The notes beneath the pieces were generated by a model, which saw nothing but the letters and a program-made list of their open reading frames with translations, searched no databases and was not told the DNA's origin. The position numbers and the translations under genes were made by a program. From assembly GCA_043812195.1 (NCBI GenBank), contig JBDRML010000001.1:3857-67856 (forward strand): DNA of 64,000 nucleotides, given 5' to 3'. Below are positions 21,839-63,090 of the stretch, piece after piece. The first letter of the stretch is position 1. Each line of letters opens with the position of its first letter. The stretch is from Candidatus Woesearchaeota archaeon (GTDB taxonomy: Archaea > Nanobdellota > Nanobdellia > SCGC-AAA011-G17 > PNOQ01).

Positions 21839-21912
21839 ATAACTTATATTAATTTTTATTTATAAATCACTTTCGCTGGTGGTTGTCGACCTTGTCAACC
21901 TGTAGTATAAAA

Positions 21913-22634: not shown

Positions 22635-24101
22635 ATGAACAGAATATCAAAAAAAAGCAAAATAACTCTTGTAGAGTTAGCTCCAACTCAATATGGAGTT
22701 TTAAATGGAGAACCCTCTTTTGATGTTTCTAGTCTAACTAGTTTTCCTGCTAGGGCTATACATCATTTAGAAGCAATTTTAACAGAAGCAGGATATGAAG
22801 ATGTTCAATCAATAAATCAAAAGTGTCATGGAAGAGATGGGAGATTAAGTGTAGACAATCAAAAAAGAATATACAGCTCAGACATCCTATTAACATCTTC
22901 AATAACAAGAACATCCCCTCAATCAATTATGCTAGGAAGAACCTACAAATCTCTCAATCCAAATGGAATAGTAATAGCAGGTGGTCAAGATCCAACATTT
23001 AGATATAAAGAATGGCTAGATCAAATAGGGGCAGATATCATTGTGGTTGGTGAAGGCGAAAAAACTCTTGAATTATTAATGGAAAGATTAGAAAAACAAC
23101 CAGATTATTTAGATGATATAGATGGTATAGCATTTAGAAATGGAGACACAATAAAAGTTACAAATACAAGAAAACGTTTAACATCAGAAGAGTTAGGTCA
23201 ACTCCCACATCCCTGTTATGATGAAATTACAAGAAAATTAACTACACCCGCCATTGAGACTAGCAGGGGATGCCCATGGGGCTGCGATTTTTGTAGCGAA
23301 ACGGAATTTAATGGAGGAAAATATAGAACAAAACCAAATAAATACACACTCAAAGACATGGTAACAGCAAAATCCTGGAAAAAACCACCATTTTATGTAG
23401 ACAATAATTTTGCAGCCTCTCAAAAAAGAACAATGGATTTATGCAACCAAATTTATGAAGCAGGTCTAAGTATCCCAAAAAGTTCTGTGCAAGTTACAGT
23501 AAAAGCAGCCCAAAATCCAGAACTGTTAAAATCATTAAAAAGAGCAGGCATAAATTTAGTAAATATAGGAATAGAATCAATTATAGATGAAAGTTTAAAA
23601 GATCTTGGGAAATCATTTAATGCAGAACAGAACAAAGAAGCAGTTAAAATATTCAAAGAAGCAGGTTTTTGGGTTCATGGAATGATGATGCCAGGCGGTG
23701 AAGGAGATACAATTGAAACATTAAAAGAAACTTCAGAATGGATAAATAAAAACTTAGATAGTGTACAACTATTTCCTCCAATACCTGGACCAGGAACAAG
23801 ACTAAGGAAAAGAATGGAATCAGAAGGAAGAATTCTTTCAGATGATTGGTCTTTATATGATGGGCAGCATGTTTTAATAAGACCAAAACACATCACACCA
23901 TACAAACTCCAAACCACAGTATTTGATATGTACAAATCATTTTATACATTTAAAAATAATTTAAGAAGATTAAGAAATTCTCCACAAAGAAATTTTTCTT
24001 GGCAAATACTTCTATACACTAATCTCTTAAATGGTATAACAAAAGTTACAAATGCACCACAAACAAGAGATCATTTAGAATTTTTAAAATCTATCAATTG
24101 A
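22635..24101 (+). CDS. B12-binding-domain radical SAM protein
   Basis: CPWGCDFC = CxxxCxxC; N-terminal Rossmann-like B12-binding region. Confidence 0.7.
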   Translation: MNRISKKSKITLVELAPTQYGVLNGEPSFDVSSLTSFPARAIHHLEAILTEAGYEDVQSINQKCHGRDGRLSVDNQKRIYSSDILLTSSITRTSPQSIMLGRTYKSLNPNGIVIAGGQDPTFRYKEWLDQIGADIIVVGEGEKTLELLMERLEKQPDYLDDIDGIAFRNGDTIKVTNTRKRLTSEELGQLPHPCYDEITRKLTTPAIETSRGCPWGCDFCSETEFNGGKYRTKPNKYTLKDMVTAKSWKKPPFYVDNNFAASQKRTMDLCNQIYEAGLSIPKSSVQVTVKAAQNPELLKSLKRAGINLVNIGIESIIDESLKDLGKSFNAEQNKEAVKIFKEAGFWVHGMMMPGGEGDTIETLKETSEWINKNLDSVQLFPPIPGPGTRLRKRMESEGRILSDDWSLYDGQHVLIRPKHITPYKLQTTVFDMYKSFYTFKNNLRRLRNSPQRNFSWQILLYTNLLNGITKVTNAPQTRDHLEFLKSIN

Positions 24102-30390: not shown

Positions 30391-33300
30391 ATGATGGACT
30401 GGAGTTTATTCAATAAAAAAGAGTATTTAGAACCTTTAGTATTTTCTAATGGAAAATCACAATTAGATGTTGTTAAAGAAGTAATACAAGCAATTAAAGA
30501 AGGACATAAGATAATTTTCATAAAAGGTATCTGTGGCACAGGTAAATGTCTAGAAAGAGATTCCAGCGTATTTTGTAAACCAAATAATGAAAATCATTTT
30601 AGTTATCATAAAATTTCGGAGTTAGTTGGGAAGGGAGGAGATATTTTAGCTCTTGATAGAATGGGAAAAATCACAGAGTCTAAGTTTAAAAATGTGAGAA
30701 ATACTGGTATTAAAAAATTATACAAGATAAAAACAAGAACTGGAAGAGAAATAGTTGCTTCAGCAAATCATCCATTACTTACTATAACAAAAGAAGGGAT
30801 AGAATGGCTGCCCTTAGAAAAACTAAATAATTATTCCTATATTTGTCTTCCAAATAAAATTTCTTTTGGAAGAGAATTAGATTATGATAATGATAAGATT
30901 AAAATTCTTGCCCATTTAATTGCAGAAGGTAAATTAGGGGACAAGGCTGGGTCTCCAATTTATTTTCAAAGTCCAAGTAAAAACCCAGAAATAAGAAAAG
31001 ATTATATCTCTTCATTAAGAAGAGCATTCCCAGATGGAGAAATAAAAAGCTATTGTGAAAAAGATGTTGCTATTGTTTTTAGAAATATGAACACAACTAA
31101 AGGAGCCACAAACAAACTAAGACTTTTCATTAGGGAGCATGGGTTGGATAAAAAAAAGTCCAGCCAAAAATTTATACCCAAAATAATATTTAATTTAAAA
31201 AAAGAAAAAATTTCTTTATTTTTAAGTAGATTGTTTTCTTGTGATGGAAGTATCTATCAAAAAAAGAAGGATGGCCAAATAACTATTGAATATTCTTCTA
31301 TCTCAAAAAGATTAATTCAAGACGTTTCTCTTTTACTTCAAAGATTTGGGATCCAACATACAATTACTTCGAAAAAATTTAAAGAAAATAAAGAATATGC
31401 TTGGATAATTTGTATTTCAAATCACAACTCTCTTAGAAAATACATAGATGAAATTGGCTTTGTTGGTAGAAAACAAAGATTAGCTTTGAAATTATACAAC
31501 AAACTAAAAATACATAAATTTACCAATATTGATAAAGTTCCAAGAGTCATACGTGAATATTTAAAAAAGAAGGGATATAACTATACTGAACTCGATAGAT
31601 TTTTAAATTACGAAAAAATTGAAGAATCTAGAAAGAAAAAAAGTTTTAAACAGATAAGAAAAGATAAATCAATAGAAACTCCTTTTGTATTTAATCAACA
31701 AAAAATTGATTTTTTAAGAAGCCATATTAAAAAAATAAATAATTATATCAAAGATGACACTCTTTCTTTTATTTGCAATGAAGATATCTTTTGGGATAAA
31801 GTAAAATCAATTGAATATATAAAAAAAGATGAAACTTATGATTTAGAAGTTCCAAAAAATCACAATTTTATTGCGAATGGAATCATTGTTCATAATTCTG
31901 CCATTGCATTAAATATAGCTAAAGAAATCGGTAAAACATCTATTGTAGTCCCAGTTAAACCATTGCAAAAACAATACGAAGAAGATTACACAGATAAAAT
32001 GTATGTTCTAAAAAAAGATGGTAAAAAATTAAAAATAGCCATTATTGATGGAAGAAACAACCATAGATGTATCTTTAAATCAAATTGCATGGCAGATGAC
32101 AGATATATTCCATGTACTATTGAAATAAAAGAAGATAACCTTAACTTACTAAAAGAATACCTACACCAAAATAAATTTGTAAACACCAAAGGCTTCAAAA
32201 AATTAAAAGACATCAGAAGAAAATCCATAGCACCTGCATGCCCTTATTGGTCTCCAATTTTACACAAAGATATGTTTGAACAAGATTATAGCATAGAAGA
32301 CGCAGAAGAAATAAATTATCAAGGTCTTCAAAACAAAACATTCACTTATTTCCAAAGAGAAAAAGGCTGCAAGTATTACAACCAATTCTTAAATTACCTT
32401 AATTCAGATGTTATTGTATTTAATAGTAAGAAATACGAACTTGAAAATTTAATGGATAGAAAACCAGCAACAGAAATAGAAATAATAGATGAATGTGATG
32501 AATTTTTAGATAATCTTGCAAATGAAAAAAAAATAAACCTAGATAGACTATCACTGGTGCTTTCAAATGTAAAAACTAAAGATTTCGATTTAAAAGAAAT
32601 AACAATAGAAATTAACGATTTAGTTCTTGAATTATTAAATGATAAAAAAATCTCTGAAAAAGAAATATTTCCAATCAAAAAAACTAAAATCTATCCATTA
32701 TTAAAACATTTCACATCAAATGCAGGATTAATCGATTTAGAAGAAGAAGAAACAGATTATTTATACAATGTATATCAAACAGGAAAATCTTTTGAAGATT
32801 ACTTTGATGAAACCTATGTAACATTTTATAGAAATGATAGAAATGAATTATTAGTTAATATAATTACAGTAGATCTTGAAAAAAAATTAAAAGAGTTCTT
32901 AGATAAAAATAAGGCTTTTGTAATGATGAGCGGAACTATCCATTCTGAAATGATATTAAAAGAAGTTTTCGGAATTAAAGATTTTAAGATAATAGAAGCA
33001 GAAGTAAATCCAATTGGCAAAATCAAAAAAATAAGAACAAAATTAGAAAAATGTTTTGATTATCAAACTTTAAAACAAAATGGAGCTAGAGAAGCATACT
33101 TAGATGCTCTTTCTAGAGCTGTAGAAGTAGCTGAAAAACCGGTTTTGGTTCATGTGAATGCATTTAAGGATTTGCCATCTAAGGAAGAGTGTTTACGGTT
33201 TAATATTTCAAATTTGAAAACCAAAGAAGAGCTTATGATCGAACAAAATGAATATAGGCGTGGTGAATTAGTCAAAAAATTTAAAGATAAGGAAATTGAA

Positions 33301-33576
33301 GTTCTTTTTTCAACTAAATGTAATAGGGGCGTAGATTTTCCAGGTGAAATTTGTAATAGTATTATATTCACAAAATATCCATATCCTAATGTAAGTTCTT
33401 TATTTTGGCAAATATTAAAGAAAAGTAAGCCTGAATATTATAGTATGTTCTATAAAGATAAAGCTGAAAGAGAATTCTTGCAGAGAGTTTACAGGGGTCT
33501 TAGGTCAGAAAAAGATCATATAAACATTTTAAGCCCGGATATTAGGATTTTGAATTCCATTGGGTTGGTTAAGTGA
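30391..33576 (+). CDS. XPD/Rad3 (DinG)-like Fe-S SF2 DNA helicase, intein-containing
   Basis: Walker A GICGTGK|...|S is interrupted by an intein; 4-Cys cluster (HRC, SNC, IPC, PAC); DEAH-like IIDECDEF; C-terminal RGVDFPG helicase motif. Confidence 0.7.
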   Translation: MMDWSLFNKKEYLEPLVFSNGKSQLDVVKEVIQAIKEGHKIIFIKGICGTGKCLERDSSVFCKPNNENHFSYHKISELVGKGGDILALDRMGKITESKFKNVRNTGIKKLYKIKTRTGREIVASANHPLLTITKEGIEWLPLEKLNNYSYICLPNKISFGRELDYDNDKIKILAHLIAEGKLGDKAGSPIYFQSPSKNPEIRKDYISSLRRAFPDGEIKSYCEKDVAIVFRNMNTTKGATNKLRLFIREHGLDKKKSSQKFIPKIIFNLKKEKISLFLSRLFSCDGSIYQKKKDGQITIEYSSISKRLIQDVSLLLQRFGIQHTITSKKFKENKEYAWIICISNHNSLRKYIDEIGFVGRKQRLALKLYNKLKIHKFTNIDKVPRVIREYLKKKGYNYTELDRFLNYEKIEESRKKKSFKQIRKDKSIETPFVFNQQKIDFLRSHIKKINNYIKDDTLSFICNEDIFWDKVKSIEYIKKDETYDLEVPKNHNFIANGIIVHNSAIALNIAKEIGKTSIVVPVKPLQKQYEEDYTDKMYVLKKDGKKLKIAIIDGRNNHRCIFKSNCMADDRYIPCTIEIKEDNLNLLKEYLHQNKFVNTKGFKKLKDIRRKSIAPACPYWSPILHKDMFEQDYSIEDAEEINYQGLQNKTFTYFQREKGCKYYNQFLNYLNSDVIVFNSKKYELENLMDRKPATEIEIIDECDEFLDNLANEKKINLDRLSLVLSNVKTKDFDLKEITIEINDLVLELLNDKKISEKEIFPIKKTKIYPLLKHFTSNAGLIDLEEEETDYLYNVYQTGKSFEDYFDETYVTFYRNDRNELLVNIITVDLEKKLKEFLDKNKAFVMMSGTIHSEMILKEVFGIKDFKIIEAEVNPIGKIKKIRTKLEKCFDYQTLKQNGAREAYLDALSRAVEVAEKPVLVHVNAFKDLPSKEECLRFNISNLKTKEELMIEQNEYRRGELVKKFKDKEIEVLFSTKCNRGVDFPGEICNSIIFTKYPYPNVSSLFWQILKKSKPEYYSMFYKDKAEREFLQRVYRGLRSEKDHINILSPDIRILNSIGLVK
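30547..31896 (+). other. intein (450 aa) with LAGLIDADG homing-endonuclease domain, inserted in the helicase P-loop
   Basis: starts with Cys after GTGK, ends ...IIVHN followed by Ser; LAGLIDADG blocks ILAHLIAEGKLGD and LFLSRLFSCDGSIY. Confidence 0.8.
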
Positions 33577-34720: not shown

Positions 34721-34810
34721 AATTAAAAAGAAAAAAAAGAATCATTTTCTATAGCCCTAACTGTTCATAATATTGTGAGTTCCTCCTGGGGCTTCGAACA
34801 AAATTAAAAA

Positions 34811-34908
34811 GATAATATAAATATTTTAAGTCCAGATATTAGGATTTTGAATTCTATTGGATTGGTTAAGTAAGCGAAATGTGTCTAGCGCTCTCTTTTA
34901 GATAATCT
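34811..34908 (+). repeat. palindromic cassette-boundary repeat, copy 7 (long form, intergenic)
   Basis: gataatataaatattttaagtccagatattaggattttgaattctattggattggttaagtaagcgaaatgtgtctagcgctctcttttagataatc. Confidence 0.85.
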
Positions 34909-34936: not shown

Positions 34937-35377
34937 ATGACCCCAAAATACCTATGGCATGGCTCCACAAAAAAAGTTAATATCATTAAACCTTCAAAAG
35001 CCATAGATTTATCTAAACATCCAGATAGTAATAGAAAAGGAGTCTATGCTACCGATTTAAAAGAGCTTGCAATAGAATTTGGTTTAGCAGATAAAAAATT
35101 ACATAAATATGCAGATTATAGTAAAAAACCAGTTCAAATTGTACTTATAGAAGGAGATATAAGAAAAGGCAAGAAATTTTATTTATATAAACTTAAAAAT
35201 AAAGGATTCAAAGAAATGCCCAAAAAATCACATCAATGGGTATCTTTCAAAGAAATAAAACCATTAAAAATTGAAGAATTAAATGTTGATGATTATTTAC
35301 ATTTGATTAGAAAAGCAAATAAAAAAGATAAAGAGTATTATTTTAGTCTTATAGGAAAGTTTAAAAAAGTTAAGTAA
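34937..35377 (+). CDS. hypothetical protein
   Basis: ORF track; the cassette ends at repeat copy 8. Confidence 0.4.
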   Translation: MTPKYLWHGSTKKVNIIKPSKAIDLSKHPDSNRKGVYATDLKELAIEFGLADKKLHKYADYSKKPVQIVLIEGDIRKGKKFYLYKLKNKGFKEMPKKSHQWVSFKEIKPLKIEELNVDDYLHLIRKANKKDKEYYFSLIGKFKKVK

Positions 35378-35410
35378 GCGAGAGGTGTCTCGCGCTCTCT
35401 TTAGTAAGCT
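35374..35410 (+). repeat. palindromic cassette-boundary repeat, copy 8
   Basis: GTAAGCGAGAGGTGTCTCGCGCTCTCTTTAGTAAGC overlapping the stop codon. Confidence 0.85.
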
Positions 35411-35522: not shown

Positions 35523-36881
35523 ATGATGAAAGAAGACAAACCAAAAAAGTTCGGCCTTAAATCGCCATTAAATGCTCAGTTTGAACTTACTTTTGCATGC
35601 CCCAGCCTATGTTCACATTGCTATAATTATTGGAGATATTTAGAAGAAAAAGAAATGGTCAAAATTGAAAAAGAACTTGGCCCACACCATTTTTTAAGTA
35701 TTGCAGATAAGATAGCAGAAGCAGAAATTTTTTCTATAACGCTTACTGGGGGAGAACCTTTATTAAGAAGAGATATTCTTTATGGTGTAATAGAAAGATT
35801 AAATTCTAAAAATGTTGAAACCAACATTAATTCAAATTTAATGTTAATTACGGATGAAGATTTGGCTAGAATGGAAAGCTTACAAGTAGGGGGGTTTCTC
35901 ACTTCATTCCACACATATGATGAAGAAAAATTTGATAAAATTTCTAATTTAAATGGAGCATTTAGAAAAACAATTAGAGGGATAAGTTTGGTAAGGAGAA
36001 ATAAAAGAAATCCAAGCACGAATATGGTTGTTTCTCAAATAAATAAGGGAGATGTGTACCAAACTGGAAAATTTTTATATAGCAACTTTGGAATAAAACG
36101 TTTTAGTGCTACACCTATTAATCCCTGTACAAATGCAAAAGCTCATCTTGATATGAGATTAAGCAAAGAAGAAACCATAGAAACACTAGAGGATTTAGTA
36201 AGGTTAGAGCAAGATTTAGGAATCTCTACCGAAGTTCTTGAACCAATTCCTTATTGTTTAATTTATGATAATCCAAGCTTTGAGAAGTTTATGAAAAAAA
36301 CTTGTACAGCAGGCAAATCAACAATTGCAATAGACCCCACAGCAAATGTTAGAGCATGCATACATCTAACAAAAAATTATGGTTCTTTATTAGAAGAAAG
36401 TTTAGAAGATATCTGGGGTAGAATGGCAGAGTGGAGGCAAAGTGGATATTACCCTGATGAATGCAAATCTTGTTCTGTAATAGATAAGTGCAAAGGAGCC
36501 TGTAGATCTGAAGCAGAATCTGTTTATGGAGACATAACCTCCAGACCACCCCTGATGACATCTCCTCTAGATACAAAATTAGAATCGACACACCAAAATA
36601 CAGAAATTTCACTAAAAGGATTTGATAATAGTTATTTAACTACTAATAATGTAAGATATAGGAAAGAACATGGGGGGTATATATTATTTTCACCATCAAA
36701 AAAGTATTTATTTTTAAACCAAGGAGAATTTGAAGCATTAACAGAATTAACTGAAAAACAAACATTTAAATTATCTGATCTATTACCAAATACAGATCAA
36801 AACGACCACAAAATCACCAATTTTTTAAAAAAGATGGTTGGAGCAAATATTATTGTTCCTAAGGAGGAAAAAATAAAATGA
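35523..36881 (+). CDS. radical SAM/SPASM-domain peptide-maturase-like enzyme
   Basis: CPSLCSHC (CxxxCxxC) near the N-terminus; C-terminal Cys-rich SPASM-like region (CKSCSVIDKCKGAC). Confidence 0.8.
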   Translation: MMKEDKPKKFGLKSPLNAQFELTFACPSLCSHCYNYWRYLEEKEMVKIEKELGPHHFLSIADKIAEAEIFSITLTGGEPLLRRDILYGVIERLNSKNVETNINSNLMLITDEDLARMESLQVGGFLTSFHTYDEEKFDKISNLNGAFRKTIRGISLVRRNKRNPSTNMVVSQINKGDVYQTGKFLYSNFGIKRFSATPINPCTNAKAHLDMRLSKEETIETLEDLVRLEQDLGISTEVLEPIPYCLIYDNPSFEKFMKKTCTAGKSTIAIDPTANVRACIHLTKNYGSLLEESLEDIWGRMAEWRQSGYYPDECKSCSVIDKCKGACRSEAESVYGDITSRPPLMTSPLDTKLESTHQNTEISLKGFDNSYLTTNNVRYRKEHGGYILFSPSKKYLFLNQGEFEALTELTEKQTFKLSDLLPNTDQNDHKITNFLKKMVGANIIVPKEEKIK

Positions 36882-37099
36882 TACAAGATTTAAAGGAAGT
36901 CATTGCAAACAGTTCAAAAAAGACAGAAAGATTACAAATTATGACTACAAGCGGAGACTTAAAATTAAGTTTATACCAAAAATTATCTAAGACCAATGAC
37001 ATTGAAGGAGCCTACTCAGTTGATTCGTGCACATGTGATTGTGTCTGCGATGGAGACTGTGAAGTGTGTGATTGCGATACCTGTTACACAAGATACTAA
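36878..37099 (+). CDS. Cys-rich precursor peptide (RiPP-like)
   Basis: ATGA overlap with the rSAM gene; leader with conserved SKTNDIEG; core DSCTCDCVCDGDCEVCDCDTCYTRY. Confidence 0.6.
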   Translation: MIQDLKEVIANSSKKTERLQIMTTSGDLKLSLYQKLSKTNDIEGAYSVDSCTCDCVCDGDCEVCDCDTCYTRY

Positions 37100-37113
37100 C
37101 AACCTAACTAATT

Positions 37114-37809
37114 ATGAGCAATAAAAAAGTATATTTTGAAAAAAGCAGAGAAAAAGAAGAAAGAAATTATTATATGATGGCTAATTTTAAATGTGGCCCT
37201 ATTTCTCGTGGTAATTTTTTTGATGAAGAATTTACTAAAAAAATAAAAAATAAAAAATTCGAAGACGTAAGAGATATAATAAAACAAAAAATAAAAAAAG
37301 ATTACGAATCGCTGACATTCGATTTAGATGGGTTTCTTAGAAATGCTAAAAAAGAATGGAGCAAGGTCGAAGAAGAATATCTTAAAAAATTAGAAAAGAT
37401 TATGCAAAAGCCATTTTTAGCCAACAAAGTAATTTGCTACTCAACAATTCTCCCAAGATGCAATTATTGGTATAAACTGCCTTGTCCATGGTTTAAGCTT
37501 AGTATCCTCTATCCTAAAAAAAAATGGAACCAGGTGTGTATGCACGAAATAATGCATTTTATGTTCCATTGGCACTACTGGGATTCCTGTAGAAAACATT
37601 TAAATGAAGAGAAAACTTGGCACTTAAAAGAAGCATTAACATTTATACTCAATGAAGAATTTTCAGATTTATTAAAAGAAAAAGATATTGGATATCCTCC
37701 ACATCAAGAATTAAGAAAGAAATTACTTAAGATTTGGAAAAAAGATAAGGATTTTAAAAGTTTTTTAGATAAAAGTATCAAAGTTATGAAAATGTGGAAA
37801 ATTGAGTAA
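37114..37809 (+). CDS. HExxH-motif protein (putative metallopeptidase)
   Basis: HEIMHFMFHWH; occupies the same position as the HExxH gene in the paralogous module at 44180. Confidence 0.45.
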   Translation: MSNKKVYFEKSREKEERNYYMMANFKCGPISRGNFFDEEFTKKIKNKKFEDVRDIIKQKIKKDYESLTFDLDGFLRNAKKEWSKVEEEYLKKLEKIMQKPFLANKVICYSTILPRCNYWYKLPCPWFKLSILYPKKKWNQVCMHEIMHFMFHWHYWDSCRKHLNEEKTWHLKEALTFILNEEFSDLLKEKDIGYPPHQELRKKLLKIWKKDKDFKSFLDKSIKVMKMWKIE

Positions 37810-37835
37810 GCGAGAGGTTTCTCGCGCTCTCTGAA
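37806..37835 (+). repeat. palindromic cassette-boundary repeat, copy 9
   Basis: GTAAGCGAGAGGTTTCTCGCGCTCTCTGAAAAG overlapping the stop codon. Confidence 0.85.
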
Positions 37836-39211: not shown

Positions 39212-39481
39212 ATGAAAAAATATACACCAATAATAAAAAATATAGTTGCAATAGTTGATTTAGAAACTAGTTTAGATTTAGAGAGCCTATCAACTCAACT
39301 AGAAAATGTTAGTGAATACAATAAAACAAAATTTCCAGGATTATGTTTAAAATCAAAAATCCCCGGATTATCTTATCTTCTATTTGAAAATGGAAAGGTT
39401 GTTTTAACAGGGGCTAAATCTGAAGAAGAATTACAACAGGGAACTGAATATATATTACACATTTTGAAGGATAATCTTTAA
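39212..39481 (+). CDS. single-repeat TBP-domain protein (half-TBP)
   Basis: IKNIVAIVDLETSLDLESLSTQL...FPGLCLKSKIPGLSYLLFENGKVVLTGAKSEEE matches one TATA-binding-protein repeat (IxNIVa..dL...ldL....FPGL..r...p.....iF.sGK.v.TGAKs.e); only 89 aa, so it is a single repeat. Confidence 0.6.
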   Translation: MKKYTPIIKNIVAIVDLETSLDLESLSTQLENVSEYNKTKFPGLCLKSKIPGLSYLLFENGKVVLTGAKSEEELQQGTEYILHILKDNL

Positions 39482-39508: not shown

Positions 39509-39596
39509 CATATAAACATTTTAAGTCCTGATATTAGAATTTTTAATTCTAAGTTGGTTAAAAGTAAGCGAGAGGTTTCTTGGGTTCTCTTAAAAA
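39509..39596 (+). repeat. palindromic cassette-boundary repeat, copy 12 (long form, right hairpin arm degenerate)
   Basis: catataaacattttaagtcctgatattagaatttttaattctaagttggttaaaagtaagcgagaggtttcttgggttctcttaaaaaaagc. Confidence 0.8.
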
Positions 39597-39743: not shown

Positions 39744-41045
39744 ATGAAGATGAATAAAAAAGAAATTTCAGAACTTATAAAAACAGGAGAAGGATATACT
39801 CTTGAATTCAAAGAAAGTTTAAGTAGTTCTATTGGAAAGACAATATGCGCTTTTGCAAATTCTTCAGGAGGAAAAATTATTTTAGGAGTTACAGATAATG
39901 GGGTTGTTAGGAGTTATAATCTAAATAACGCTGACCGTTCAAAAATTGAAAATATTGTAAGGAATATGGATCCTTCATTTCGAGTAAATATAGAACAGGT
40001 TTCAGATTTAGTTGTGATTTATGTTCCTGAAGGTAAAGAGAAACCTTACGCCATAAACGGGCATTTTTATTTAAGGCAAGGAGCAAATTCACAACAATTA
40101 AGGCGGGATGAAATTAGATCATTATTCCAGAGAGAGAATTTAATTAGATTTGATCGTAAAGCCAATCAAGAATTTGATATGAAAGAAGATTTTGATAAGA
40201 AAAAATTCAAATCATTCATTACCAAAACTGGGATTGACAGTTCTTTGCCTAAACAACATATCTTAAAGAATTTAGGTTTAATTACTGAAAATAAGCTTAA
40301 TAATACAGGAGTTTTATTTTTTTCACATCGCATTTCTAAGTTTTTCTTAAATTCTGTCATCACCTGTGTGTTATATAGCGGGAGAACAAAAACAAAGATT
40401 TTGGATAAAAAAGAATTTGATGCAGATTTTGTTTCTAACTTCAATAATGCCGTCATTTTTGCATTAAAAACACTTAAAACAGAATATGTTATTGAAAAAG
40501 TTGAAAGGGAAGAAAAACATGAAATCCCTGAAAAAGTTTTGCGTGAATTAATAATCAATGCAATGATTCACAGAAATTATTTTTCAGAAGGCCGTATTTT
40601 AATTGAGATTTATGCAGATAGAATTGAAATTACTAATCCAGGAGAGCTATTATTTAAGAAAAGTGATTTGGGGAAAAGAAGCCTTGCCAGAAATCCTCTT
40701 TTAGTTGATTTAGTTCACAGGCTGCAATTTGTGGAAAAAATAGGCTCAGGTATTAAAAGAGTCAAAGAATTAATGGGGAGTAAAATTAAATTTGATATAG
40801 ATTCTGACTGGTTTGGAGTGATTATTAAGAGAAATGACACTGTAAATGACACTGTAAATGACACTGTAAAAATCATTTTATCTGAATTAAGAATTAATCC
40901 TAATATTACTTATGATGAACTAGGAAAGAAAATTGGTAAAAGCAGGAGCACAATTATTCGTCATATTGACAAACTAAAAGAAAAGGGTATTGTAAAGAGA
41001 ATTGGCTCAGATAAAGGAGGACATTGGGAAGTGGTTGGAAAATGA
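39744..41045 (+). CDS. AlbA_2 (Schlafen-like) + HATPase_c_4 + wHTH putative regulator (COG2865-like)
   Basis: N-terminal LEFKESL...ICAFANSSGGKIILGV (AlbA_2); mid NAMIHRNY; C-terminal HTH; contains a 9-bp x3 tandem repeat. Confidence 0.65.
   Translation: MKMNKKEISELIKTGEGYTLEFKESLSSSIGKTICAFANSSGGKIILGVTDNGVVRSYNLNNADRSKIENIVRNMDPSFRVNIEQVSDLVVIYVPEGKEKPYAINGHFYLRQGANSQQLRRDEIRSLFQRENLIRFDRKANQEFDMKEDFDKKKFKSFITKTGIDSSLPKQHILKNLGLITENKLNNTGVLFFSHRISKFFLNSVITCVLYSGRTKTKILDKKEFDADFVSNFNNAVIFALKTLKTEYVIEKVEREEKHEIPEKVLRELIINAMIHRNYFSEGRILIEIYADRIEITNPGELLFKKSDLGKRSLARNPLLVDLVHRLQFVEKIGSGIKRVKELMGSKIKFDIDSDWFGVIIKRNDTVNDTVNDTVKIILSELRINPNITYDELGKKIGKSRSTIIRHIDKLKEKGIVKRIGSDKGGHWEVVGK
40833..40868 (+). 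repeat. tandem 9-bp repeat AATGACACTGTA x3 (encodes NDTV x3)
   Basis: read directly from the sequence. Confidence 0.8.
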
Positions 41046-41102: not shown

Positions 41103-41675
41103 ATGAAAAAGAAAAGGCAAAAACCATGGGAAACAAAATTAATTGAAAAAATTATTGATGTTACTGGTTATTGTTTTCCTGGAGCGGAAGAAGAAGCATT
41201 GAAGCAGTTTAACAAAGTAAAAGCTAAAGAAATTTCTGTAATGCGAACTAAAGTAGATTTTGATCGTGGTTTTCAAACATGGTTTTTATTAAAATATTTA
41301 ATCGAAGAAAAATTTACACCAATGGAAGTTATTTCTGGAAACCCGTCAAATTATTTTACAAAAAGAGAATTGCAAATGGTTGATAACTTTCTCAATAATA
41401 AAGAGGGCTTTTATGAAATAATATCCATCTCAAGAGACAAAAAAGACTTTACCATAAAGAATGTTATGAATAGCGAGATTATTTCTGTAAAAACAATTGA
41501 TTTTCCCAACAAATTAAGTAAAGGAGAACATATTTATACAATTCCTGTGCAAAAGCTTGATGGAAACTATTTCTTTTACGGCAATGTAACATGTTATTCA
41601 AAAGAGAATTGTGTAGATATTGTAAATCTTACAAAGATAGAAAAAGCACATAGGTTAAGTTTATATGAGAGATGA
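41103..41675 (+). CDS. hypothetical protein
   Basis: ORF track. Confidence 0.4.
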   Translation: MKKKRQKPWETKLIEKIIDVTGYCFPGAEEEALKQFNKVKAKEISVMRTKVDFDRGFQTWFLLKYLIEEKFTPMEVISGNPSNYFTKRELQMVDNFLNNKEGFYEIISISRDKKDFTIKNVMNSEIISVKTIDFPNKLSKGEHIYTIPVQKLDGNYFFYGNVTCYSKENCVDIVNLTKIEKAHRLSLYER

Positions 41676-41985
41676 ATTAGTCAAAAAATTTAAAGATAAG
41701 GAAATTGAAGTTCTTTTTTCAACTAAATGTAATAGGGGTGTAGATTTTCCAGGTGAAATTTGTAATAGTATTATATTCACAAAATATCCATATCCTAATG
41801 TAAGTTCTTTATTTTGGCAGATATTAAAGAAAAGTAAGCCTGAATATTATAGTATGTTCTATAAAGATAAAGCTGAAAGAGAATTCTTGCAAAGAGTTTA
41901 TAGAGGTCTTAGGTCAGAAAAAGATCATATAAATATTTTAAGTCCAGATATTAGGATTTTGAATTCCATTGGGTTGGTTAAGTAA
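41665..41985 (+). pseudogene. duplicated 3' fragment (106 codons) of the XPD-like helicase gene
   Basis: translation is identical to the last 104 aa of 30391..33576; nucleotide near-identity with 33259-33576; followed by repeat copy 13. Confidence 0.75.
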
Positions 41986-42762: not shown

Positions 42763-44025
42763 ATGAAAATACTAAAAAGCCCTATTTCAGTTCACTATGA
42801 ATTAACTGAAAATTGCAATCATCGTTGCGAACATTGTTATAATCCCTTTGCGCATATTTCTGAAGAAGTTCCAAAATTAACAAGAGATAGAATAATAGAA
42901 GAATTAGTACAAAATGAAGTATTTCATGTTATCCTTACTGGAGGAGAACCATTATTTTATCAAGATATGGCTGTAGATGCTGTAAAAAGATTAAATAAAA
43001 ATGGAGCTGTTGTTTCTTTAAATTCAAATTTAACTTTAATGGATAGAAATACTGCAGTCTCACTTAAAAAAGCAGGTCTAAAAAGTGCCCTAACTAGCAT
43101 AACTCACTATGATCCAAATATTCATGATAAAATTACTAAAATAGATGGAAGTTTAGAAAGATGTATTTCTGGAATTAATTATCTTGTAAATCAAGAAATA
43201 CCTGTCTCAGTAAATATGGTCGTAACAAAAGACAGAGTTGACGATGTTTACAAAACAGGAGAAATGTTAGTAGATTTAGGTATTACAGGTTTTTCAGCAA
43301 CAAGAATGGCGCCAAACAGAGATAATCTAAAAGAAATTTTAGATGCTCAAGAAGTAAAACATATGTTAGATCAATTATTATTATTAAAAGAAAAATACGG
43401 CATTAATGTTTCAAGCTTAAACAATCTTCCAAGATGTTTTAGTTCTGACAAAAAATATGGGATATTTATGAATAGATCTTGTAATGGTGGAAGAACAAGT
43501 GCAACAATAACTCAGATAGGTGGATTAAAATCTTGTCATCATTTAGATGAAGTTGTTGGAAATATAATAGAGGAAGGATTATCAACAGTTTGGGAAAAGG
43601 CTCCAGTATTAAAAGATGAAAGATTGCCAAAAGGATGTTTAGCATGTGATGTAAATGAAAACTGTGCAGGAGGCTGTAGACAAACTGCAGAAGTTGTTAG
43701 AAACAAAAAAACAGGCCTAGATCCAATTGCAAGAGGAAAAGAACAAATAATAACCTTAGATCCACCAGAACTGCCAAATAAAGATAGCACATTAAGATTT
43801 ATGAAAGATACATTATATAGAAAAGAAAAAAATGGAGGGGTTTTATTTAGAAATCCAAGAAATTATGCAATATTAAATGAATCACAATATCAGTTAGCTT
43901 TAAAACTGTCAAACAACTCTTTTTCAATAAATGAATTGAAAGATTTATTTGGAAATGAATTAAGTTCCTTTATGGAAAGATTATACCAAAAAGGTTTAAT
44001 AGGGGAGGCAAAATGGAAAAATTAG
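42763..44025 (+). CDS. radical SAM/SPASM-domain peptide-maturase-like enzyme (paralog of 35523..36881)
   Basis: CNHRCEHC (CxxxCxxC); C-terminal CLACDVNENCAGGC SPASM-like. Confidence 0.8.
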   Translation: MKILKSPISVHYELTENCNHRCEHCYNPFAHISEEVPKLTRDRIIEELVQNEVFHVILTGGEPLFYQDMAVDAVKRLNKNGAVVSLNSNLTLMDRNTAVSLKKAGLKSALTSITHYDPNIHDKITKIDGSLERCISGINYLVNQEIPVSVNMVVTKDRVDDVYKTGEMLVDLGITGFSATRMAPNRDNLKEILDAQEVKHMLDQLLLLKEKYGINVSSLNNLPRCFSSDKKYGIFMNRSCNGGRTSATITQIGGLKSCHHLDEVVGNIIEEGLSTVWEKAPVLKDERLPKGCLACDVNENCAGGCRQTAEVVRNKKTGLDPIARGKEQIITLDPPELPNKDSTLRFMKDTLYRKEKNGGVLFRNPRNYAILNESQYQLALKLSNNSFSINELKDLFGNELSSFMERLYQKGLIGEAKWKN

Positions 44026-44177
44026 TTACTAACGAAAAAAGAATTGACTTAAAATATGAGCCAGCAGGCAAGTTAGCAGAGATTAAAGAATTGACTTCAA
44101 AAGCAAATGTAATAGAAGAATTAAATTATTTAAGAACAATAGATTACGATTGTGATGACGGAAATTGTAGTGATTAA
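44013..44177 (+). CDS. precursor peptide (54 aa) with C-terminal DYDCDDGNCSD
   Basis: start overlaps the rSAM stop; leader SKANVIEELNYLRTIDYDC is similar to SKTNDIEGAYSVDSC of the 36878 peptide. Confidence 0.55.
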   Translation: MEKLVTNEKRIDLKYEPAGKLAEIKELTSKANVIEELNYLRTIDYDCDDGNCSD

Positions 44178-44179
44178 AT

Positions 44180-44767
44180 ATGATTTATAACTTAAATGAA
44201 GTAAATGAAAAAGAACTAAAAGAGTTCTTAGATACCTCATTAGAAGAACTAAAAGAGTTTTACAAATTAGGGGAATTTCAAACTCCTAATTTATTTATTT
44301 TAAAAGATAGAAAAACTATAGATCAATTAAAAGGGAAAAAAACAGAGGATTGGTTAGTTGGTTGGTCTGTCCCAGAGCTTAATTCAATTTTTGTTCTAGA
44401 AAAATCTAAATTCGGAACAGAAAGCAAAAAAGTATACAGCGATAATATGTACAATAAATTACTGAAACATGAATTAGTTCATATTATATATCATAAAATT
44501 TCTAAAAATAGAAAACCAGTTTGGCTTAGTGAAGGTATAGCAATTTATCTTTCAGGCCAATATCTTAAAAAAACTAGACCAGAAAAATTCAAAAATTTCC
44601 TAAATTTTTATAATGAAGGAGGATCTGAAGTTTATGAAGAAAGCGGATTTGCTGTTGAATTATTAATCAACAAATTTGGAAAAGAAAAATTATTAACTTT
44701 AATTAAATCTTTAAACGGAATAGAATCAGATAAAGAATTTTTAAAGAAATATACAAAGTTGAGCTAA
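44180..44767 (+). CDS. HExxH zinc-metallopeptidase-like protein
   Basis: HELVHIIYH; starts 3 nt after the peptide stop. Confidence 0.5.
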   Translation: MIYNLNEVNEKELKEFLDTSLEELKEFYKLGEFQTPNLFILKDRKTIDQLKGKKTEDWLVGWSVPELNSIFVLEKSKFGTESKKVYSDNMYNKLLKHELVHIIYHKISKNRKPVWLSEGIAIYLSGQYLKKTRPEKFKNFLNFYNEGGSEVYEESGFAVELLINKFGKEKLLTLIKSLNGIESDKEFLKKYTKLS

Positions 44768-44857: not shown

Positions 44858-45832
44858 GTGGTGAACAAAACTAGGAGGAATGATATAATGAAAAAGGGTT
44901 TGTTAGTTTTATTTTTGTTTAGTGTTTTAGTTCTTGCTTCAACATCAACTTCAGCAGCTAATTGTGGTGGTAATATTTCTTGTAATTGCGGAGATACAGT
45001 TGTTGAGGATTATGTTTTGGACAGAGACTTATTTTGCGAATCTACCTACTGGCCACCAACTTCTATAGGTTTGATGGTTGGTTCTGAAGGTATTAATATA
45101 GATTGTAATGGTCATAGTATAACTAGTGATAATAATGAACCAAACTTTAATATTGCTAATTATGCAATACACACTCTGAATAAAGATAACATAACTATAA
45201 AAAACTGCCATTTTCATTACTTTTTTTGTGGCATATATGCAAATTCTAAAAATAATTTTATCCATAACAACGAATTTAATGACTCTGCATTGGGTATTTG
45301 GACTACGGGCCCTAACAATACAATTAGAAATAATGAAATGCATCACAATTATAGAGCAATTTGGATTAATGGCAATGGTAATCTAATTTCAAACAACAAT
45401 ATATATAATAATTATCAAGGCATTTCATTCTATTCTATATCTCCACCAGGACCATTTACTAATAATACATTCTGGATTAACAGGTTTGTAAACAATGATA
45501 TTGTTGTTGATGAAGATAACACAATTGGTAATCATTGGAATAATAGTAATGTAGGAAACTTCTGGGATGATTTTGATGATAATATTGGATATCCAGATTA
45601 TTACTTGGTTCCAGGCAACGCTGGTTCTGTGGATTATCATCCAATCTGGTTCTGTAAAGAGGGAATAGAACCAGAAGTATGTTCTGAACAAACACCATTC
45701 TGTTGTAGATATGGAGAATTAGTAGCTGATTGTCAACAATGTGGCTGCCCTTCTGATAGACCAAAATGTCAAGAAAATGGACATTGCACAAAAGCAGATA
45801 AACCAACTTTGCCGTTCATTATAGCAAATTAA
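44858..45832 (+). CDS. secreted right-handed parallel beta-helix repeat protein
   Basis: signal peptide; repeated NNxxxNN/IxNN blocks (NNEFND..IRNNEMHHN..ISNNNIYNN). Confidence 0.6.
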   Translation: MVNKTRRNDIMKKGLLVLFLFSVLVLASTSTSAANCGGNISCNCGDTVVEDYVLDRDLFCESTYWPPTSIGLMVGSEGINIDCNGHSITSDNNEPNFNIANYAIHTLNKDNITIKNCHFHYFFCGIYANSKNNFIHNNEFNDSALGIWTTGPNNTIRNNEMHHNYRAIWINGNGNLISNNNIYNNYQGISFYSISPPGPFTNNTFWINRFVNNDIVVDEDNTIGNHWNNSNVGNFWDDFDDNIGYPDYYLVPGNAGSVDYHPIWFCKEGIEPEVCSEQTPFCCRYGELVADCQQCGCPSDRPKCQENGHCTKADKPTLPFIIAN

Positions 45833-47008: not shown

Positions 47009-47878
47009 ATGTTAGGAAGAAATCATGTTTCAATTTCATTAGCTACAATTATGCCTTTCTTAATACCTCTTATCTTTTTAGAATCAAATAATTCAATAAT
47101 ATATGGTTTTGCTTTTTTAATATCTATTCTTGTTGGATCTCTGCTACCCGACGCAGACTGTGGAGGAAAATCAAAACTCTATTACGATTTTAACATATTC
47201 TACCAATTAATTATTCCAATTACCAAATTAACTGTTTGGACATTTAAACTTTCAAGTGTTAAAAAAAAGTTGTCTACAAAGTTTTCAGAATTACAAGATG
47301 TAAATCATGAACATAGAGGGATAATGCATTCACCCATAGGAACGATAGTCAGTTCTTTTTTGTTAACTTTAATTATTCTTATCATAATGACACTTATTGC
47401 TAAAACTAATCTATTATTAGTTTTAATTATCTTTCTAGGATTAATTATTGGACAAATTCTACATTTATTAGAAGATTCCTGCACTGTTACTGGGATAAAT
47501 TGGATGTTTCCATTTGGAAAAAAAGAATTAAAAGGGCAAATATACACATTTGAGTGGAAATATCAAAATAAAAAAGATATCCGGCCGATGATTTATGTTT
47601 ATTCCCTGGTGGCTGTGTCCATTATATCCTTATTAGTAAACTCATTTGGGGCTGTGAATAATCTTTTTTTATATTATTTAATAACAACAATCGCAGTTTT
47701 GATAATTTGGATAATAATTATCAAGATATCTCAAAGTCAGTCTATTTTTTGGTATAGAGACGCCGAAAAAATAAAACAAATACAAAAAAAACAAAGAAAA
47801 GCTTTAAAAAAATTTACAGGAATAAAAAGAAAAAAACACAAAAAAAGATCATATAAACATTTTAAGTCCAGATATTAG
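47009..47878 (+). CDS. polytopic membrane protein (metal-dependent hydrolase-like?)
   Basis: 6+ TM helices; LLPDADCGG; the 3' end runs into the long-form repeat. Confidence 0.4.
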   Translation: MLGRNHVSISLATIMPFLIPLIFLESNNSIIYGFAFLISILVGSLLPDADCGGKSKLYYDFNIFYQLIIPITKLTVWTFKLSSVKKKLSTKFSELQDVNHEHRGIMHSPIGTIVSSFLLTLIILIIMTLIAKTNLLLVLIIFLGLIIGQILHLLEDSCTVTGINWMFPFGKKELKGQIYTFEWKYQNKKDIRPMIYVYSLVAVSIISLLVNSFGAVNNLFLYYLITTIAVLIIWIIIIKISQSQSIFWYRDAEKIKQIQKKQRKALKKFTGIKRKKHKKRSYKHFKSRY

Positions 47879-47940
47879 GATTTTGAATTCTATTGGGGTA
47901 GTTAAGTAAGCGAGAAGTGTCTCTCACTTTCTTTTAGAAA
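47838..47940 (+). repeat. palindromic cassette-boundary repeat, copy 17 (long form)
   Basis: gatcatataaacattttaagtccagatattaggattttgaattctattggggtagttaagtaagcgagaagtgtctctcactttcttttagaaa. Confidence 0.85.
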
Positions 47941-50289: not shown

Positions 50290-50892
50290 ATGAATAAAAA
50301 AGTACTAATCGCAACACTGTATTCACCAGAACCAGTGTTATTAGCTGCCAATAGGCTTGGCCCAGATAGATTAATACTATTAATAGATAAAAAATCTAAT
50401 AAACACCAAGAAGATTCTCTAAAAGTGATTAATAACTCTCTGGGTAGAATTATAGATGTTAAACCAATTAAAGTTGATGTTTATGACATTGTAGGGGTTG
50501 CTAAAAAGGTTGTAGAAGTCATAGATATGCAGCCTAGAGATGATAGATTATTTGTAAATGTAACCTCTGGTAGAAAAACACAAGCTCTTGGTTTGTTATT
50601 TGGAGCTTATGCTAGACATGATAGAATTAATAAAATAGCTTATAATCCTGAAGAAGATAAGAATTCTGTTGTTTATTTGCCTAGATTGTCTTTTAAGTTA
50701 AATGAGAGCCAAAAAAAGATATTAGATGTAGTTTCAGAAGTTCCAGGTGGTAATTATGCTGAATTAGCTGAAAAGGCCGGTGTTTCAAAAGCAATGTTTT
50801 ATAGGGCTACAGATGAGTTAAAAGACATGGATCTTGTATTAAATGAAGATGGTTTAAAATTAACAGATGCAGGAGAGATAGCGAGGTTGTAG
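50290..50892 (+). CDS. Rossmann-like (CARF/Csa3-like?) + C-terminal wHTH regulator
   Basis: N-terminal KVLIATLYSPEPVLLAANRLGPDRLILLI; C-terminal wHTH ILDVVSEVPGGNYAELAEKAGVSKAMFYRATDELKDMDLV. Confidence 0.4.
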   Translation: MNKKVLIATLYSPEPVLLAANRLGPDRLILLIDKKSNKHQEDSLKVINNSLGRIIDVKPIKVDVYDIVGVAKKVVEVIDMQPRDDRLFVNVTSGRKTQALGLLFGAYARHDRINKIAYNPEEDKNSVVYLPRLSFKLNESQKKILDVVSEVPGGNYAELAEKAGVSKAMFYRATDELKDMDLVLNEDGLKLTDAGEIARL

Positions 50893-50908
50893 GGGGGCTA
50901 AATTAAAA

Positions 50909-56675: not shown

Positions 56676-56676
56676 A

Positions 56677-63055: not shown

Positions 63056-63090
63056 TCAAAAGAGAGCGCGAGAAACCTCTCGCTTACTAA
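63056..63090 (-). repeat. palindromic cassette-boundary repeat, copy 19 (inverted orientation)
   Basis: reverse complement reads GTTAGTAAGCGAGAGGTTTCTCGCGCTCTCTTTTGA; abuts the truncated radC copy. Confidence 0.85.

Follow-up and report, generated by a model that had tools for sequence, protein, structure and literature searches.

A putative radical SAM/SPASM peptide-maturation module in a Woesearchaeota genome, with relatives in archaea and bacteria

We suggest that a three-gene module from a metagenome-assembled genome, labelled Candidatus Woesearchaeota archaeon by NCBI and known here from sequence alone, is on balance probably a compact biosynthetic unit for a RiPP, working through the steps set out below. 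The module (module A) occupies positions 35523-37809 of the 64,000-nucleotide stretch of DNA that was analysed, hereafter the window, and encodes, all on the + strand, a radical SAM/SPASM enzyme, a 73-aa ORF and an HExxH protein. We posit that the 73-aa product would be a precursor in which a leader of ~48 aa precedes a Cys/Asp core of 25 aa, that the enzyme would bind the leader, probably via an extra C-terminal winged-helix domain, and that, on cleaving SAM, it would abstract hydrogen from core residues, whereupon Cys sulfurs would be joined to carbons of neighbouring residues in several intramolecular thioether cross-links. The leader would then be removed by the adjoining gluzincin. Judged by sequence comparison, module A is part of a gene family without a name or a characterised member, found in both archaea and bacteria.

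The module, its precursor peptide and related loci

The three reading frames have the bounds that the original prediction had assigned to them (Table 1), and the enzyme gene and the 73-aa ORF do meet in the ATGA junction it described, the ATG at 36878-36880 lying over the enzyme's TGA at 36879-36881; 14 nt separate the 73-aa ORF from the HExxH gene. The interval between the two hairpin repeats that flank the module holds no transporter or immunity gene, which counts against the RiPP reading. A compositional anomaly was considered and rejected, the module having a GC content of 30.7% against 28.3% for the window as a whole. A viperin or defence reading was likewise unsupported, PADLOC returning a weak generic match of the radical SAM core (residues 20-178) to pVip and no match for the 73-aa peptide or the zincin, as we call the HExxH protein.

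Table 1. Features of the two modules and the flanking repeats (positions in the window)
Feature	Position	Strand	Basis or remark
22-nt hairpin repeat, upstream copy GCGAGAGGTGTCTCGCGCTCTC	35378-35399	+	Exact motif match; left boundary; abuts stop of ORF 34937-35377
Radical SAM/SPASM enzyme, 452 aa, putative peptide maturase	35523-36881	+	Pfam and NCBIfam domain matches
C-terminal domain of the enzyme, residues ~366-452, winged-helix, candidate leader-binding (RRE-like)	36618-36878	+	DSSP of model and PDB profile match
Shine-Dalgarno-like GGAGG	36863-36867	+	Inside enzyme gene, 10 nt 5' of the ATG of the 73-aa ORF; read from sequence
Putative precursor peptide, 73 aa	36878-37099	+	
Putative leader, residues 1-48	36878-37021	+	N-terminal motif M-[IV]-x-x-L-x-[ED]-x-[VI]
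Putative core DSCTCDCVCDGDCEVCDCDTCYTRY and stop codon	37022-37099	+	8 Cys, 6 Asp, 1 Glu
HExxH protein, 231 aa, stand-alone gluzincin (MA-clan) domain, putative leader peptidase	37114-37809	+	H144, E145, H148, E173, Y194 invariant
22-nt hairpin repeat, downstream copy GCGAGAGGTTTCTCGCGCTCTC	37810-37831	+	Right boundary; abuts stop codon of zincin gene
Module B radical SAM/SPASM enzyme, 420 aa	42763-44025	+	28% identity full length, C-terminal domain included
Module B putative precursor, 54 aa, ends DYDCDDGNCSD	44013-44177	+	Overlaps module B enzyme gene by 13 nt
Module B HExxH zincin, 195 aa, Peptidase_MA_2 type (HELVH...EGIA)	44180-44767	+	PF13485 8.6e-7

The peptide ends in the Cys-rich stretch that had been claimed for it, with 8 Cys in 19 residues (positions 51, 53, 55, 57, 61, 64, 66 and 69). 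The background frequency of Cys in the long ORFs of the window is 1.27%, and only 4 of the 211 ORFs of 30 aa or more in the window's six frames contain a 19-aa stretch with at least 5 Cys. Within the core CTCDCVCDGDCEVCDCDTC, Asp or Glu sits 1-3 residues after most of the cysteines, so that Cys-Xn-Asp/Glu units are present. The leader motif listed in Table 1 is common to six archaeal-type precursors (those of module A, L004, L001, L010, L011 and L022), while SK[TA]N[DV]IE, which the original prediction had offered as a marker of homologues, proved to be confined to the two paralogous peptides of the window and is missing from the L004 and L022 orthologues. A word-indexed search with the peptide as query recovered nothing but the peptide itself, and an exhaustive phmmer search of 1.84 billion representatives returned a single true relative, the L004-type peptide P0141; two further matches were rejected as spurious repeat proteins, driven by "GAYSVDS". 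NCBIfam precursor models gave no match to the peptide at E <= 0.1, nor to six related precursors at E <= 1.

The enzyme has roughly 46 full-length relatives. Related loci were sought with an alignment of seven sequences, and the counts that follow refer to 16 distinct loci, in archaea and bacteria, that encode full-length relatives of the enzyme. The small ORF, whose conservation the original prediction had depended on, does recur beside the enzyme: in 14 of the 16, a short ORF that ends in a Cys repeat lies ~0-110 nt from the enzyme gene, often overlapping it. The closest case is the marine contig L004, which carries all three genes in unchanged order (enzyme 60% identical, HExxH protein 70%) and a core, CTCDCYCDSSCVVCDCDSCY, that keeps all 8 of the 8 Cys positions and four core Asp positions, even though the 26 codons compared show 7 synonymous and 10 non-synonymous changes. 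It could be argued that three ORFs adjoin by chance, without functional link, in a hypervariable cassette array, and the region is indeed a patchwork of unrelated genes between repeats; however, the trio stands in this order in an unrelated marine contig free of the repeats, and the enzyme-peptide pair recurs across archaea and bacteria as just described. Chance adjacency is already contradicted by this conserved synteny, and we give it practically no credence. That the 73-aa peptide is the enzyme's substrate we regard as very probable.

The cores of the family are diverse. Further examples are CNDCDSCDYSTCNCDDGDECMCDC (L024), CNCFTCDGSCHCECDG (L021), CHCDCACAC (L020) and CIDCNSCVNCQGC (L014); the number of cysteines varies from 2 to 8, module B and L022 having only two, and the Cys repeat is the only feature common to all precursors. 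In other clades Asn, Ser, Thr, Val or Gln stands between the cysteines instead of Asp, and hence Cys-Asp chemistry cannot hold for the family as a whole, which counts against it. The CxC and CxxC repeats with Asp and Gly do resemble metal-chelating sequences, and the interval has no transporter, as might be expected if the small protein were an unmodified, metallothionein-like peptide binding metal or Fe-S, with the radical SAM enzyme adjoining it as cluster donor, redox partner or regulator. The variation in Cys count, however, fits variable RiPP cores and not a fixed metal site, and a long conserved leader with a motif, an extra winged-helix domain and an adjoining protease are hallmarks of leader-guided maturation. 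We consider a metallothionein-like role very unlikely and retain the RiPP reading.

The enzyme, its C-terminal domain and the zincin

Both Cys signatures attributed to the enzyme are there. The radical SAM motif CPSLCSHC has the form CX3CX2C at residues 26-33 (C26, C30, C33), and its three cysteines are kept in at least 90% of 42 homologues; the C-terminal SPASM-like Cys cluster is recognised above cut-off by Pfam SPASM (PF13186, 25.1 bits, cut-off 21.5) and by the NCBIfam SPASM domain (TIGR04085, 42.6 bits, cut-off 27), as is the core domain by Pfam Radical_SAM (PF04055, 61.4 bits, cut-off 29.5). Among the same 42 homologues the cysteines of the SPASM motif (C-x9-15-G-x4-C ... CX2CX5CX3C ... 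C), C245, C261, C279, C314, C317, C323 and C327, are invariant or nearly so. The last, eighth, SPASM Cys is missing in the clade of module A and kept by about half of the family, which counts against the RiPP reading. The AF2 model of the enzyme (pLDDT 90.9) has the fold of solved SPASM enzymes, with anSME, ChlB, SuiB, CteB, SkfB and PqqE as best structural matches, and SkfB is also its best sequence-profile match in the PDB (2e-21). None of the named NCBIfam maturase models (PapB, SCIFF, sactisynthase, ACGX, anSME) reaches its threshold, the best 25 matches of the enzyme all falling far below the cut-offs.

The enzyme carries an extra domain at its C-terminus. In the model, DSSP assigns strands 370-373, 378-382, 385-389 and 395-398, followed by helices 400-412, 417-420 and 429-440; this succession of a strand sheet and three helices, a winged helix, is an RRE-like topology. 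Compared with the PDB, a profile of the domain built from 32 homologues retrieves winged-helix domains (eS25 at 2.6e-5, and AdcR/MarR). None of 32 family members matches PqqD (PF05402) at E <= 1, and hhalign against the bona fide PqqD domains at the N-termini of P0106 and P0066 gave probabilities of 20% (colinear over 75 columns, weak) and 1%; the failure to find a significant PqqD/RRE match in Pfam or with hhalign counts against the RiPP reading. The domain would probably bind the leader. The comparisons show the gene content, the domain identities, the folds and the conservation of both the enzyme-peptide pairing and the Cys pattern; we infer leader binding, the role of the protease, the peptide's status as substrate, the thioether chemistry with its regiochemistry and any biological activity of the product.

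In the third protein the HExxH motif is present as had been claimed (MHEIMH, residues 143-148). With HExxH+24+E, an invariant Tyr and an M1-like fold, it belongs with the gluzincins of the MA clan. It differs from the M1 gluzincins (ERAP1, APN, LTA4H) in being only 231 aa long and made up of no more than a catalytic domain, whose N-terminal part is helical, and no exopeptidase motif of the GxMEN type was seen in it. It matches no curated peptidase family in Pfam (E <= 1) or NCBIfam (E <= 0.1). A zincin gene adjoins in 10 of the 16 loci, and two more have an adjoining candidate only, a 212-aa ORF on the P0004 contig and a 444-aa HExxH ORF without a peptidase match in L013. The zincins of the family are of two types unrelated in sequence, which looks like functional replacement; there is no detectable sequence homology between the module A zincin and the Peptidase_MA_2 proteins of the sister modules, a relationship that was rejected after BLASTP aligned them only over HExxH and hhalign gave a probability of 10%. 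A paralogue of the zincin, P0126, is encoded in the same MAG.

The HExxH protein might instead be something other than a leader peptidase, whether an alpha-ketoglutarate/Fe(II) oxygenase that hydroxylates Asp (compare ChlH), an immunity factor or an unrelated protease. Distant relatives without any radical SAM gene nearby (L007/L008) count against the RiPP reading; the alpha-KG HExxH oxygenases of the ChlH/BpmH type are not its closest relatives in sequence or in fold. We judge such a role decidedly unlikely and continue to favour removal of the leader.

Candidate chemistry and comparison with known systems

We incline slightly towards thioether cross-linking as the modification. Within the clade of module A the most likely link would run from the Cys sulfur to Asp at its beta-carbon or to Glu at its gamma-carbon, as with PapB and QhpD, and this specific linkage we put forward tentatively, as a rather doubtful proposal; alternatively, the sulfurs might be joined to alpha-carbons (sactionine type). 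The same enzyme and substrate could also be paired in another chemistry, such as conversion of Cys to formylglycine or thioaldehyde as by anSME, C-C or C-O cross-linking, or epimerisation. Against this, a C/S-x-P/A-x-R motif is missing from the peptide, and the 46 window ORFs scanned include no sulfatase, the presence of which would have pointed to an anSME; module A differs from anSME in having neither a sulfatase nor a CxPxR target motif, and anSME for its part lacks a C-terminal winged-helix domain. More generally, the Cys repeat shared by all precursors goes with thioethers in characterised SPASM systems (PMC8326336). We regard other chemistries as unlikely, and thioethers remain our preferred reading.

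The original prediction had matched the architecture to ranthipeptide, SCIFF and sactipeptide-type systems. The related loci support the RiPP reading behind this comparison, but the enzyme could not be assigned to those families, all named NCBIfam models scoring far below cut-off and no precursor model matching. The nearest precedents are freyrasin (PapA/PapB) and QhpD/QhpC, where a radical SAM/SPASM enzyme likewise acts on Cys interleaved with Asp or Glu. PapB makes Cys-Xn-Asp/Glu thioethers with n = 0-6 (PMC9413430), a range that would cover the CD, CxD and CxxD spacings of the module A core. Nevertheless, the PapB model NF047865 gives the enzyme 47.8 bits against a cut-off of 340; unlike PapB, the enzyme has no N-terminal RRE, its extra domain being C-terminal; its core consists of CxC/CxxC repeats and not of the six CX3D units of freyrasin; and Asp is absent from the cores of the family's other clades. 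The acceptors in ranthipeptides are Asp, Asn and Thr (PMC8326336), which are residues that stand between the cysteines here.

The SCIFF systems (CteA/CteB, Tte1186) are clostridial and highly conserved, whereas the cores of the present family vary. No SCIFF precursor or maturase model reaches threshold here, the maturase model not being among the best 25 NCBIfam matches of the enzyme, and CteB has an N-terminal RRE, residues 15-157 of the module A enzyme aligning to residues 101-249 of CteB. Of the six cysteines of SCIFF peptides, no more than one is known to take part in a cross-link (PMC8326336), so that a high Cys count does not imply many cross-links, which counts against dense cross-linking here. 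The sactipeptide synthases (SkfB, AlbA, StsB) would share the Cys-to-carbon thioether chemistry, but the StsB model NF045574 gives 60.7 bits against a cut-off of 625, and SkfB differs from the module A enzyme by its twitch domain and by its RRE at the N-terminus. In sactipeptide cores the Cys donors are clustered apart from the acceptors, unlike the alternating pattern seen here. Finally, the ACGX-repeat system (TIGR04340/TIGR04341) and other predicted Cys-repeat/SPASM pairs likewise combine a leader, a regular Cys repeat and a SPASM enzyme. The rSAM_ACGX model TIGR04340 gives 63 bits against a cut-off of 400, and the peptide has no ACGX repeats. The ACGX-repeat system and similar pairs are known from bioinformatic prediction only.

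Flanking repeats, a second module and significance

Module A does end at a repeat, as predicted, the downstream copy lying directly at the zincin stop codon. The repeat motif has 16 copies in the window and none in 100 shuffles; as single-stranded DNA, either strand forms a stem of 6 bp only, to which some copies add 3-4 bp. An integron attC reading was rejected, a 22-nt core with a 6-bp stem not being attC-like: an attC site is an imperfect long palindrome of 57-141 nt with R''/L''/L'/R' boxes. No recombinase or integron integrase was found in the 46 ORFs scanned across the window, the motif has no match in IMG/VR, Rfam or 18 related loci (L001-L018), the orthologous marine module included, and neither the enzyme nor the module A zincin matches phage and plasmid collections. 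Of the mobile cassette originally proposed, the flanking repeats are therefore real, but the absence of a recombinase among the window ORFs scanned and of attC-like repeats, the repeat-free marine module and the lack of phage or plasmid matches speak against mobility, and the packaging of module A as a mobile cassette is only suggested.

A paralogous module, module B, lies at 42763-44767 in the same window. In the Woesearchaeota locus L022 the core of its precursor is conserved as DYECDDGNCSDD. Its zincin aligns with those of L001, L014 and L015 and scores 29.4 bits with PF13485, below the 32.4 cut-off; the PapB model NF047865 gives its enzyme 71.4 bits (cut-off 340). The expectation that such a module would be out of place in a small-genome archaeon was not borne out, at least four family modules coming from Woesearchaeota-labelled sequence (the two of the window, L018 and P0016/L022), and a survey reports rSAM-type RiPP clusters in DPANN (PMC12144867).

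In one respect this kind of find is unsurprising, Cys-rich peptide/SPASM pairs being a familiar theme with many members that still lack characterisation. To our knowledge, no identified archaeal RiPP product is radical-SAM-modified. A survey of archaeal RiPPs underlines that the number of identified products is small (PMC12144867). At its fullest, the present case would amount to an undescribed RiPP class extending from DPANN archaea to Clostridia and Bacteroidota, with a leader-binding domain that is C-terminal and not N-terminal on its SPASM maturase, a dense thioether ladder, of up to eight in 19 residues, on an acidic CxC-repeat core, the first radical-SAM-modified archaeal peptide, and genes duplicated in an insertion hot-spot bounded by a new short hairpin repeat; as one joint claim, we think it possible, though improbable. 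The family offers a compact three-gene target, testable in a heterologous host, and the enzyme, with its unusual domain order and a core that is nearly half cysteine, might provide highly rigid, cross-linked scaffolds and serve peptide engineering as a new maturase. DPANN archaea are host-dependent and have very small genomes, and the upkeep of two copies of the pathway in such an organism suggests that the peptide matters for its lifestyle.

A three-gene module and its relatives

The three open reading frames of module A, which encode a radical SAM/SPASM enzyme, a cysteine-rich peptide and an HExxH protein (zincin), have the layout of the original prediction, at the same coordinates and all on the plus strand. 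The enzyme and peptide genes overlap at ATGA, the 73-aa ORF starting within the stop codon of the enzyme gene, with GGAGG 10 nt ahead of that start; 14 nt separate it from the HExxH ORF, whose stop codon lies directly against a copy of a 22-nt repeat. The module comes from a MAG labelled Candidatus Woesearchaeota by NCBI, where the contig measures 70.7 kb, and the module's composition is no different from that of the window (G+C ~28%).

Features of the window discussed in the text
Feature	Position	Strand	Details
Rad51/RadA-like N-terminal ORF, then LAGLIDADG-containing ORF	20687-22512	-	199 aa; 383 aa
Repeat copies	22556-48337	+	15 copies, regardless of neighbour-gene orientation
B12-binding radical SAM protein	22635-24101		488 aa; alone between two repeat copies
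XPD/Rad3-like helicase gene	30391-33576		LAGLIDADG-domain intein
Helicase 3'-end duplicates	34806-34873, 39509-39567, 41662-41985, 47842-47909
Module A radical SAM/SPASM enzyme	35523-36881	+	452 aa
Module A precursor-like peptide	36878-37099	+	73 aa
Module A HExxH protein	37114-37809	+	231 aa
Single TBP (TATA-binding protein) repeat	39212-39481		89 aa; inside variable array
Schlafen AlbA_2, HATPase_c_4, winged-helix protein	39744-41045
Module B (enzyme, peptide, HExxH protein)	42763-44767
NosD-like beta-helix protein	44858-45832		directly 3' of module B
Defence-like block	50290-59934
RadC gene	59918-60625	-
Repeat copy	63062-63083	-	1 copy
Truncated RadC copy	63087-63587	-

The peptide ends in DSCTCDCVCDGDCEVCDCDTCYTRY, with 8 Cys within 19 residues (background Cys frequency 1.27%). 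Searches with its sequence returned a single cluster of relatives, and gene-context searches were more informative. On a TARA marine scaffold (L004) the same three genes stand in the same order, the enzyme 60% and the HExxH protein 70% identical to their module A counterparts and the 71-aa peptide ending in QDCTCDCYCDSSCVVCDCDSCYEQF. Since all eight Cys positions are conserved between the two peptides, and the 26 core codons differ by 7 synonymous and 10 non-synonymous changes, we conclude that selection acts on the protein. The leader motif once proposed, SK[TA]N[DV]IE, is not conserved in orthologues; six archaeal-type leaders have in common an N-terminal M-[IV]-x-x-L-x-[ED]-x-[VI].

A short ORF ending in a Cys repeat adjoins the enzyme gene in 14 of the 16 distinct loci with full-length relatives, a 60-aa ORF on one further contig being counted outside these. 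The precursors share a layout in which 25-50 leader residues precede a stretch with a Cys every 2-4 residues, the cysteines being spaced by small residues or by Asp, Asn, Thr, Ser, Glu or Gln, and no NCBIfam precursor model matches any of these peptides. In some sister modules, at locus L001 (4697-5950) and on the P0004 contig, the precursor gene is followed by another radical SAM/SPASM gene and by one for an APH-type kinase, which suggests further tailoring steps in those clades.

Core sequences of precursors at related loci
Locus	Core
L001	CESDGCCYSGGSCYSNCDM
L010/L018	CNSCAGCNNGGPTCVSCVCVS
L011	CTSCVSCNAGSPACVSCVCVS
L013	CDNCQCGNCQH
L014	CIDCNSCVNCQGC
L015	CTNTCNTCVRCNSC
L019	CNCCQTC
L020	CHCDCACAC
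L021	CNCFTCDGSCHCECDG
L022	DYECDDGNCSDD
L023	CDWCEGSSCEGGQC
L024	CNDCDSCDYSTCNCDDGDECMCDC

The window itself holds a paralogous module B. Its 420-aa enzyme is 28% identical to that of module A over the full length, including the C-terminal domain; its 54-aa peptide overlaps the enzyme gene and ends in DYDCDDGNCSD, a core kept in a second Woesearchaeota contig (L022); and its HExxH protein (195 aa) is of the Peptidase_MA_2 type. The neighbouring NosD-like protein begins with a stretch resembling a signal peptide and ends in a Cys-rich tail.

The module A HExxH protein has 17 relatives besides itself, one of them a paralogue from another part of this MAG. H144, E145, H148, E173 and Y194 are invariant, a gluzincin pattern of HExxH, Glu 24 residues on, and Tyr. 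A zincin gene adjoins in 10 of 16 loci, and the zincins of sister modules are mostly of the Peptidase_MA_2 type (HExxH+17+E), with no detectable sequence relatedness to that of module A. The occurrence of two unrelated zincin types in the same position argues that the system would need a protease. The family is not limited to the radical SAM peptide system, since distant relatives (39% identity) stand among PIN and MazG genes without a radical SAM gene. One distant homologue, at L007, lies 3.4 kb from a 71-aa Cys/Gly-rich ORF at the contig end (8625-8840; ...CAQCGGCGCGGGCTAGCGGCTSCGGCGSSF...), which matches the heterocycloanthracin family weakly and may be another modified-peptide precursor.

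The putative maturase and its proposed chemistry

The module A enzyme has a CX3CX2C motif (C26, C30, C33) and exceeds the Pfam Radical_SAM, Pfam SPASM and NCBIfam SPASM domain thresholds, but falls far under the cut-off of every NCBIfam equivalog: 96.6 bits against 500 for NirJ2, the top match, 47.8 against 340 for PapB, 60.7 against 625 for StsB and 63 against 400 for the ACGX-system enzyme. About 46 full-length relatives (420-460 aa, 27-38% identity) are found in public data, from Woesearchaeota, Saprospiraceae, Youngiibacter and metagenomes. Across 42 aligned relatives C245, C261, C314, C317, C323 and C327 are invariant and C26, C30, C33 and C279 almost so; the usual final SPASM cysteine is kept in roughly half of the family and absent in the module A clade.

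A sequence-profile search returned the same list as the structural matches of the confident AlphaFold model (pLDDT 90.9), with SkfB at 2e-21. In SkfB, TigE, SuiB and CteB the aligned region starts at residues 101-125, because these enzymes carry an N-terminal RiPP recognition element (RRE), whereas in the module A enzyme it starts at residue ~10. At residues ~366-452 the model shows an extra domain, built from four short strands and three helices. Its profile matched winged-helix domains (eS25, AdcR/MarR) and not Pfam PqqD, and when set against true N-terminal PqqD domains from distant relatives it aligned colinearly but weakly (probability 20%). We therefore term the predicted domain RRE-like in topology and position, without demonstrated homology.

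The best-supported reading, inferred throughout, is that the SPASM enzyme would mature the peptide, guided by its leader, and that the leader would then be removed by proteolysis. By analogy we favour thioether cross-links, although the fold likeness of the enzyme would fit C-S, C-C or oxidation chemistry alike: the SPASM enzymes characterised with Cys-rich RiPP precursors as partners form thioethers, as in sactipeptides and ranthipeptides (PMC8326336), the residues interleaved with Cys here are known ranthipeptide acceptors, and PapB forms Cys-Xn-Asp/Glu links for n = 0-6 (PMC9413430). In SCIFF peptides, by contrast, a reaction is known for only one cysteine out of six (PMC8326336).

A repeat-bounded, variable array

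The repeat (GCGAGARGTNTCTCGCGCTCTC) occurs in 16 copies in the window, where none is expected. Most copies lie directly against a stop codon, with a TATA-like box within the next 10-20 nt. Two bracket module A exactly, and module B lies in a 5-kb inter-repeat interval with three other genes. The idea of a mobile cassette stands in part: module A does reside in a variable, cassette-like array between repeats, but its mobility is at most suggested. Against a defined mobile cassette, the 46 window ORFs scanned held no recombinase domain, the repeat motif did not occur in the orthologous L004 module, IMG/VR or Rfam, and phage and plasmid collections gave no match to the enzyme or the zincin. Integron arrays are known from Nanoarchaeota (PMC9668308); the repeat folds only into a 6-bp hairpin, which sets it apart from integron attC sites. 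The 3' end of the helicase gene is duplicated downstream four times, each copy decayed and then followed by a repeat; one duplicate, of 300 nt, is 96% identical. Duplicates of this kind beside repeats would be expected if insertions had occurred serially at the end of the helicase gene, which is how the region looks.

Other genes of the window may be noted here. The B12-binding radical SAM protein weakly matches the PADLOC candidate defence protein PDC-M51A, and the Schlafen-domain protein resembles pAgo-associated and CARF/Csa3-type regulators in PADLOC. The defence-like block comprises a CARF-HTH protein, a UvrD helicase-PD-(D/E)XK nuclease fusion, an N6/N4 DNA methylase (969 aa) and a ResIII/SNF2 helicase (1085 aa). 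The RadA-like ORF pair probably represents a radA gene that is split or carries an intein. The two RadC copies are 77-78% identical, the truncated one being followed by the sole minus-strand repeat.

Comparison with known RiPP systems

A Cys-rich peptide with a SPASM maturase is a familiar theme in kind, and a survey of archaeal genomes has already reported radical-SAM-type RiPP clusters in DPANN (PMC12144867). With that report, and since the module family recurs in Woesearchaeota, the host is no surprise, contrary to what had been expected. As far as the literature and databases were searched, however, the module A family is undescribed, as are the build of its enzyme, which lacks an N-terminal RRE and bears a winged helix at the C-terminus, the acidic or polar cores of CxC/CxxC repeats with 2-8 Cys, a small stand-alone gluzincin partner, and the spread of such a system over both archaea and bacteria.
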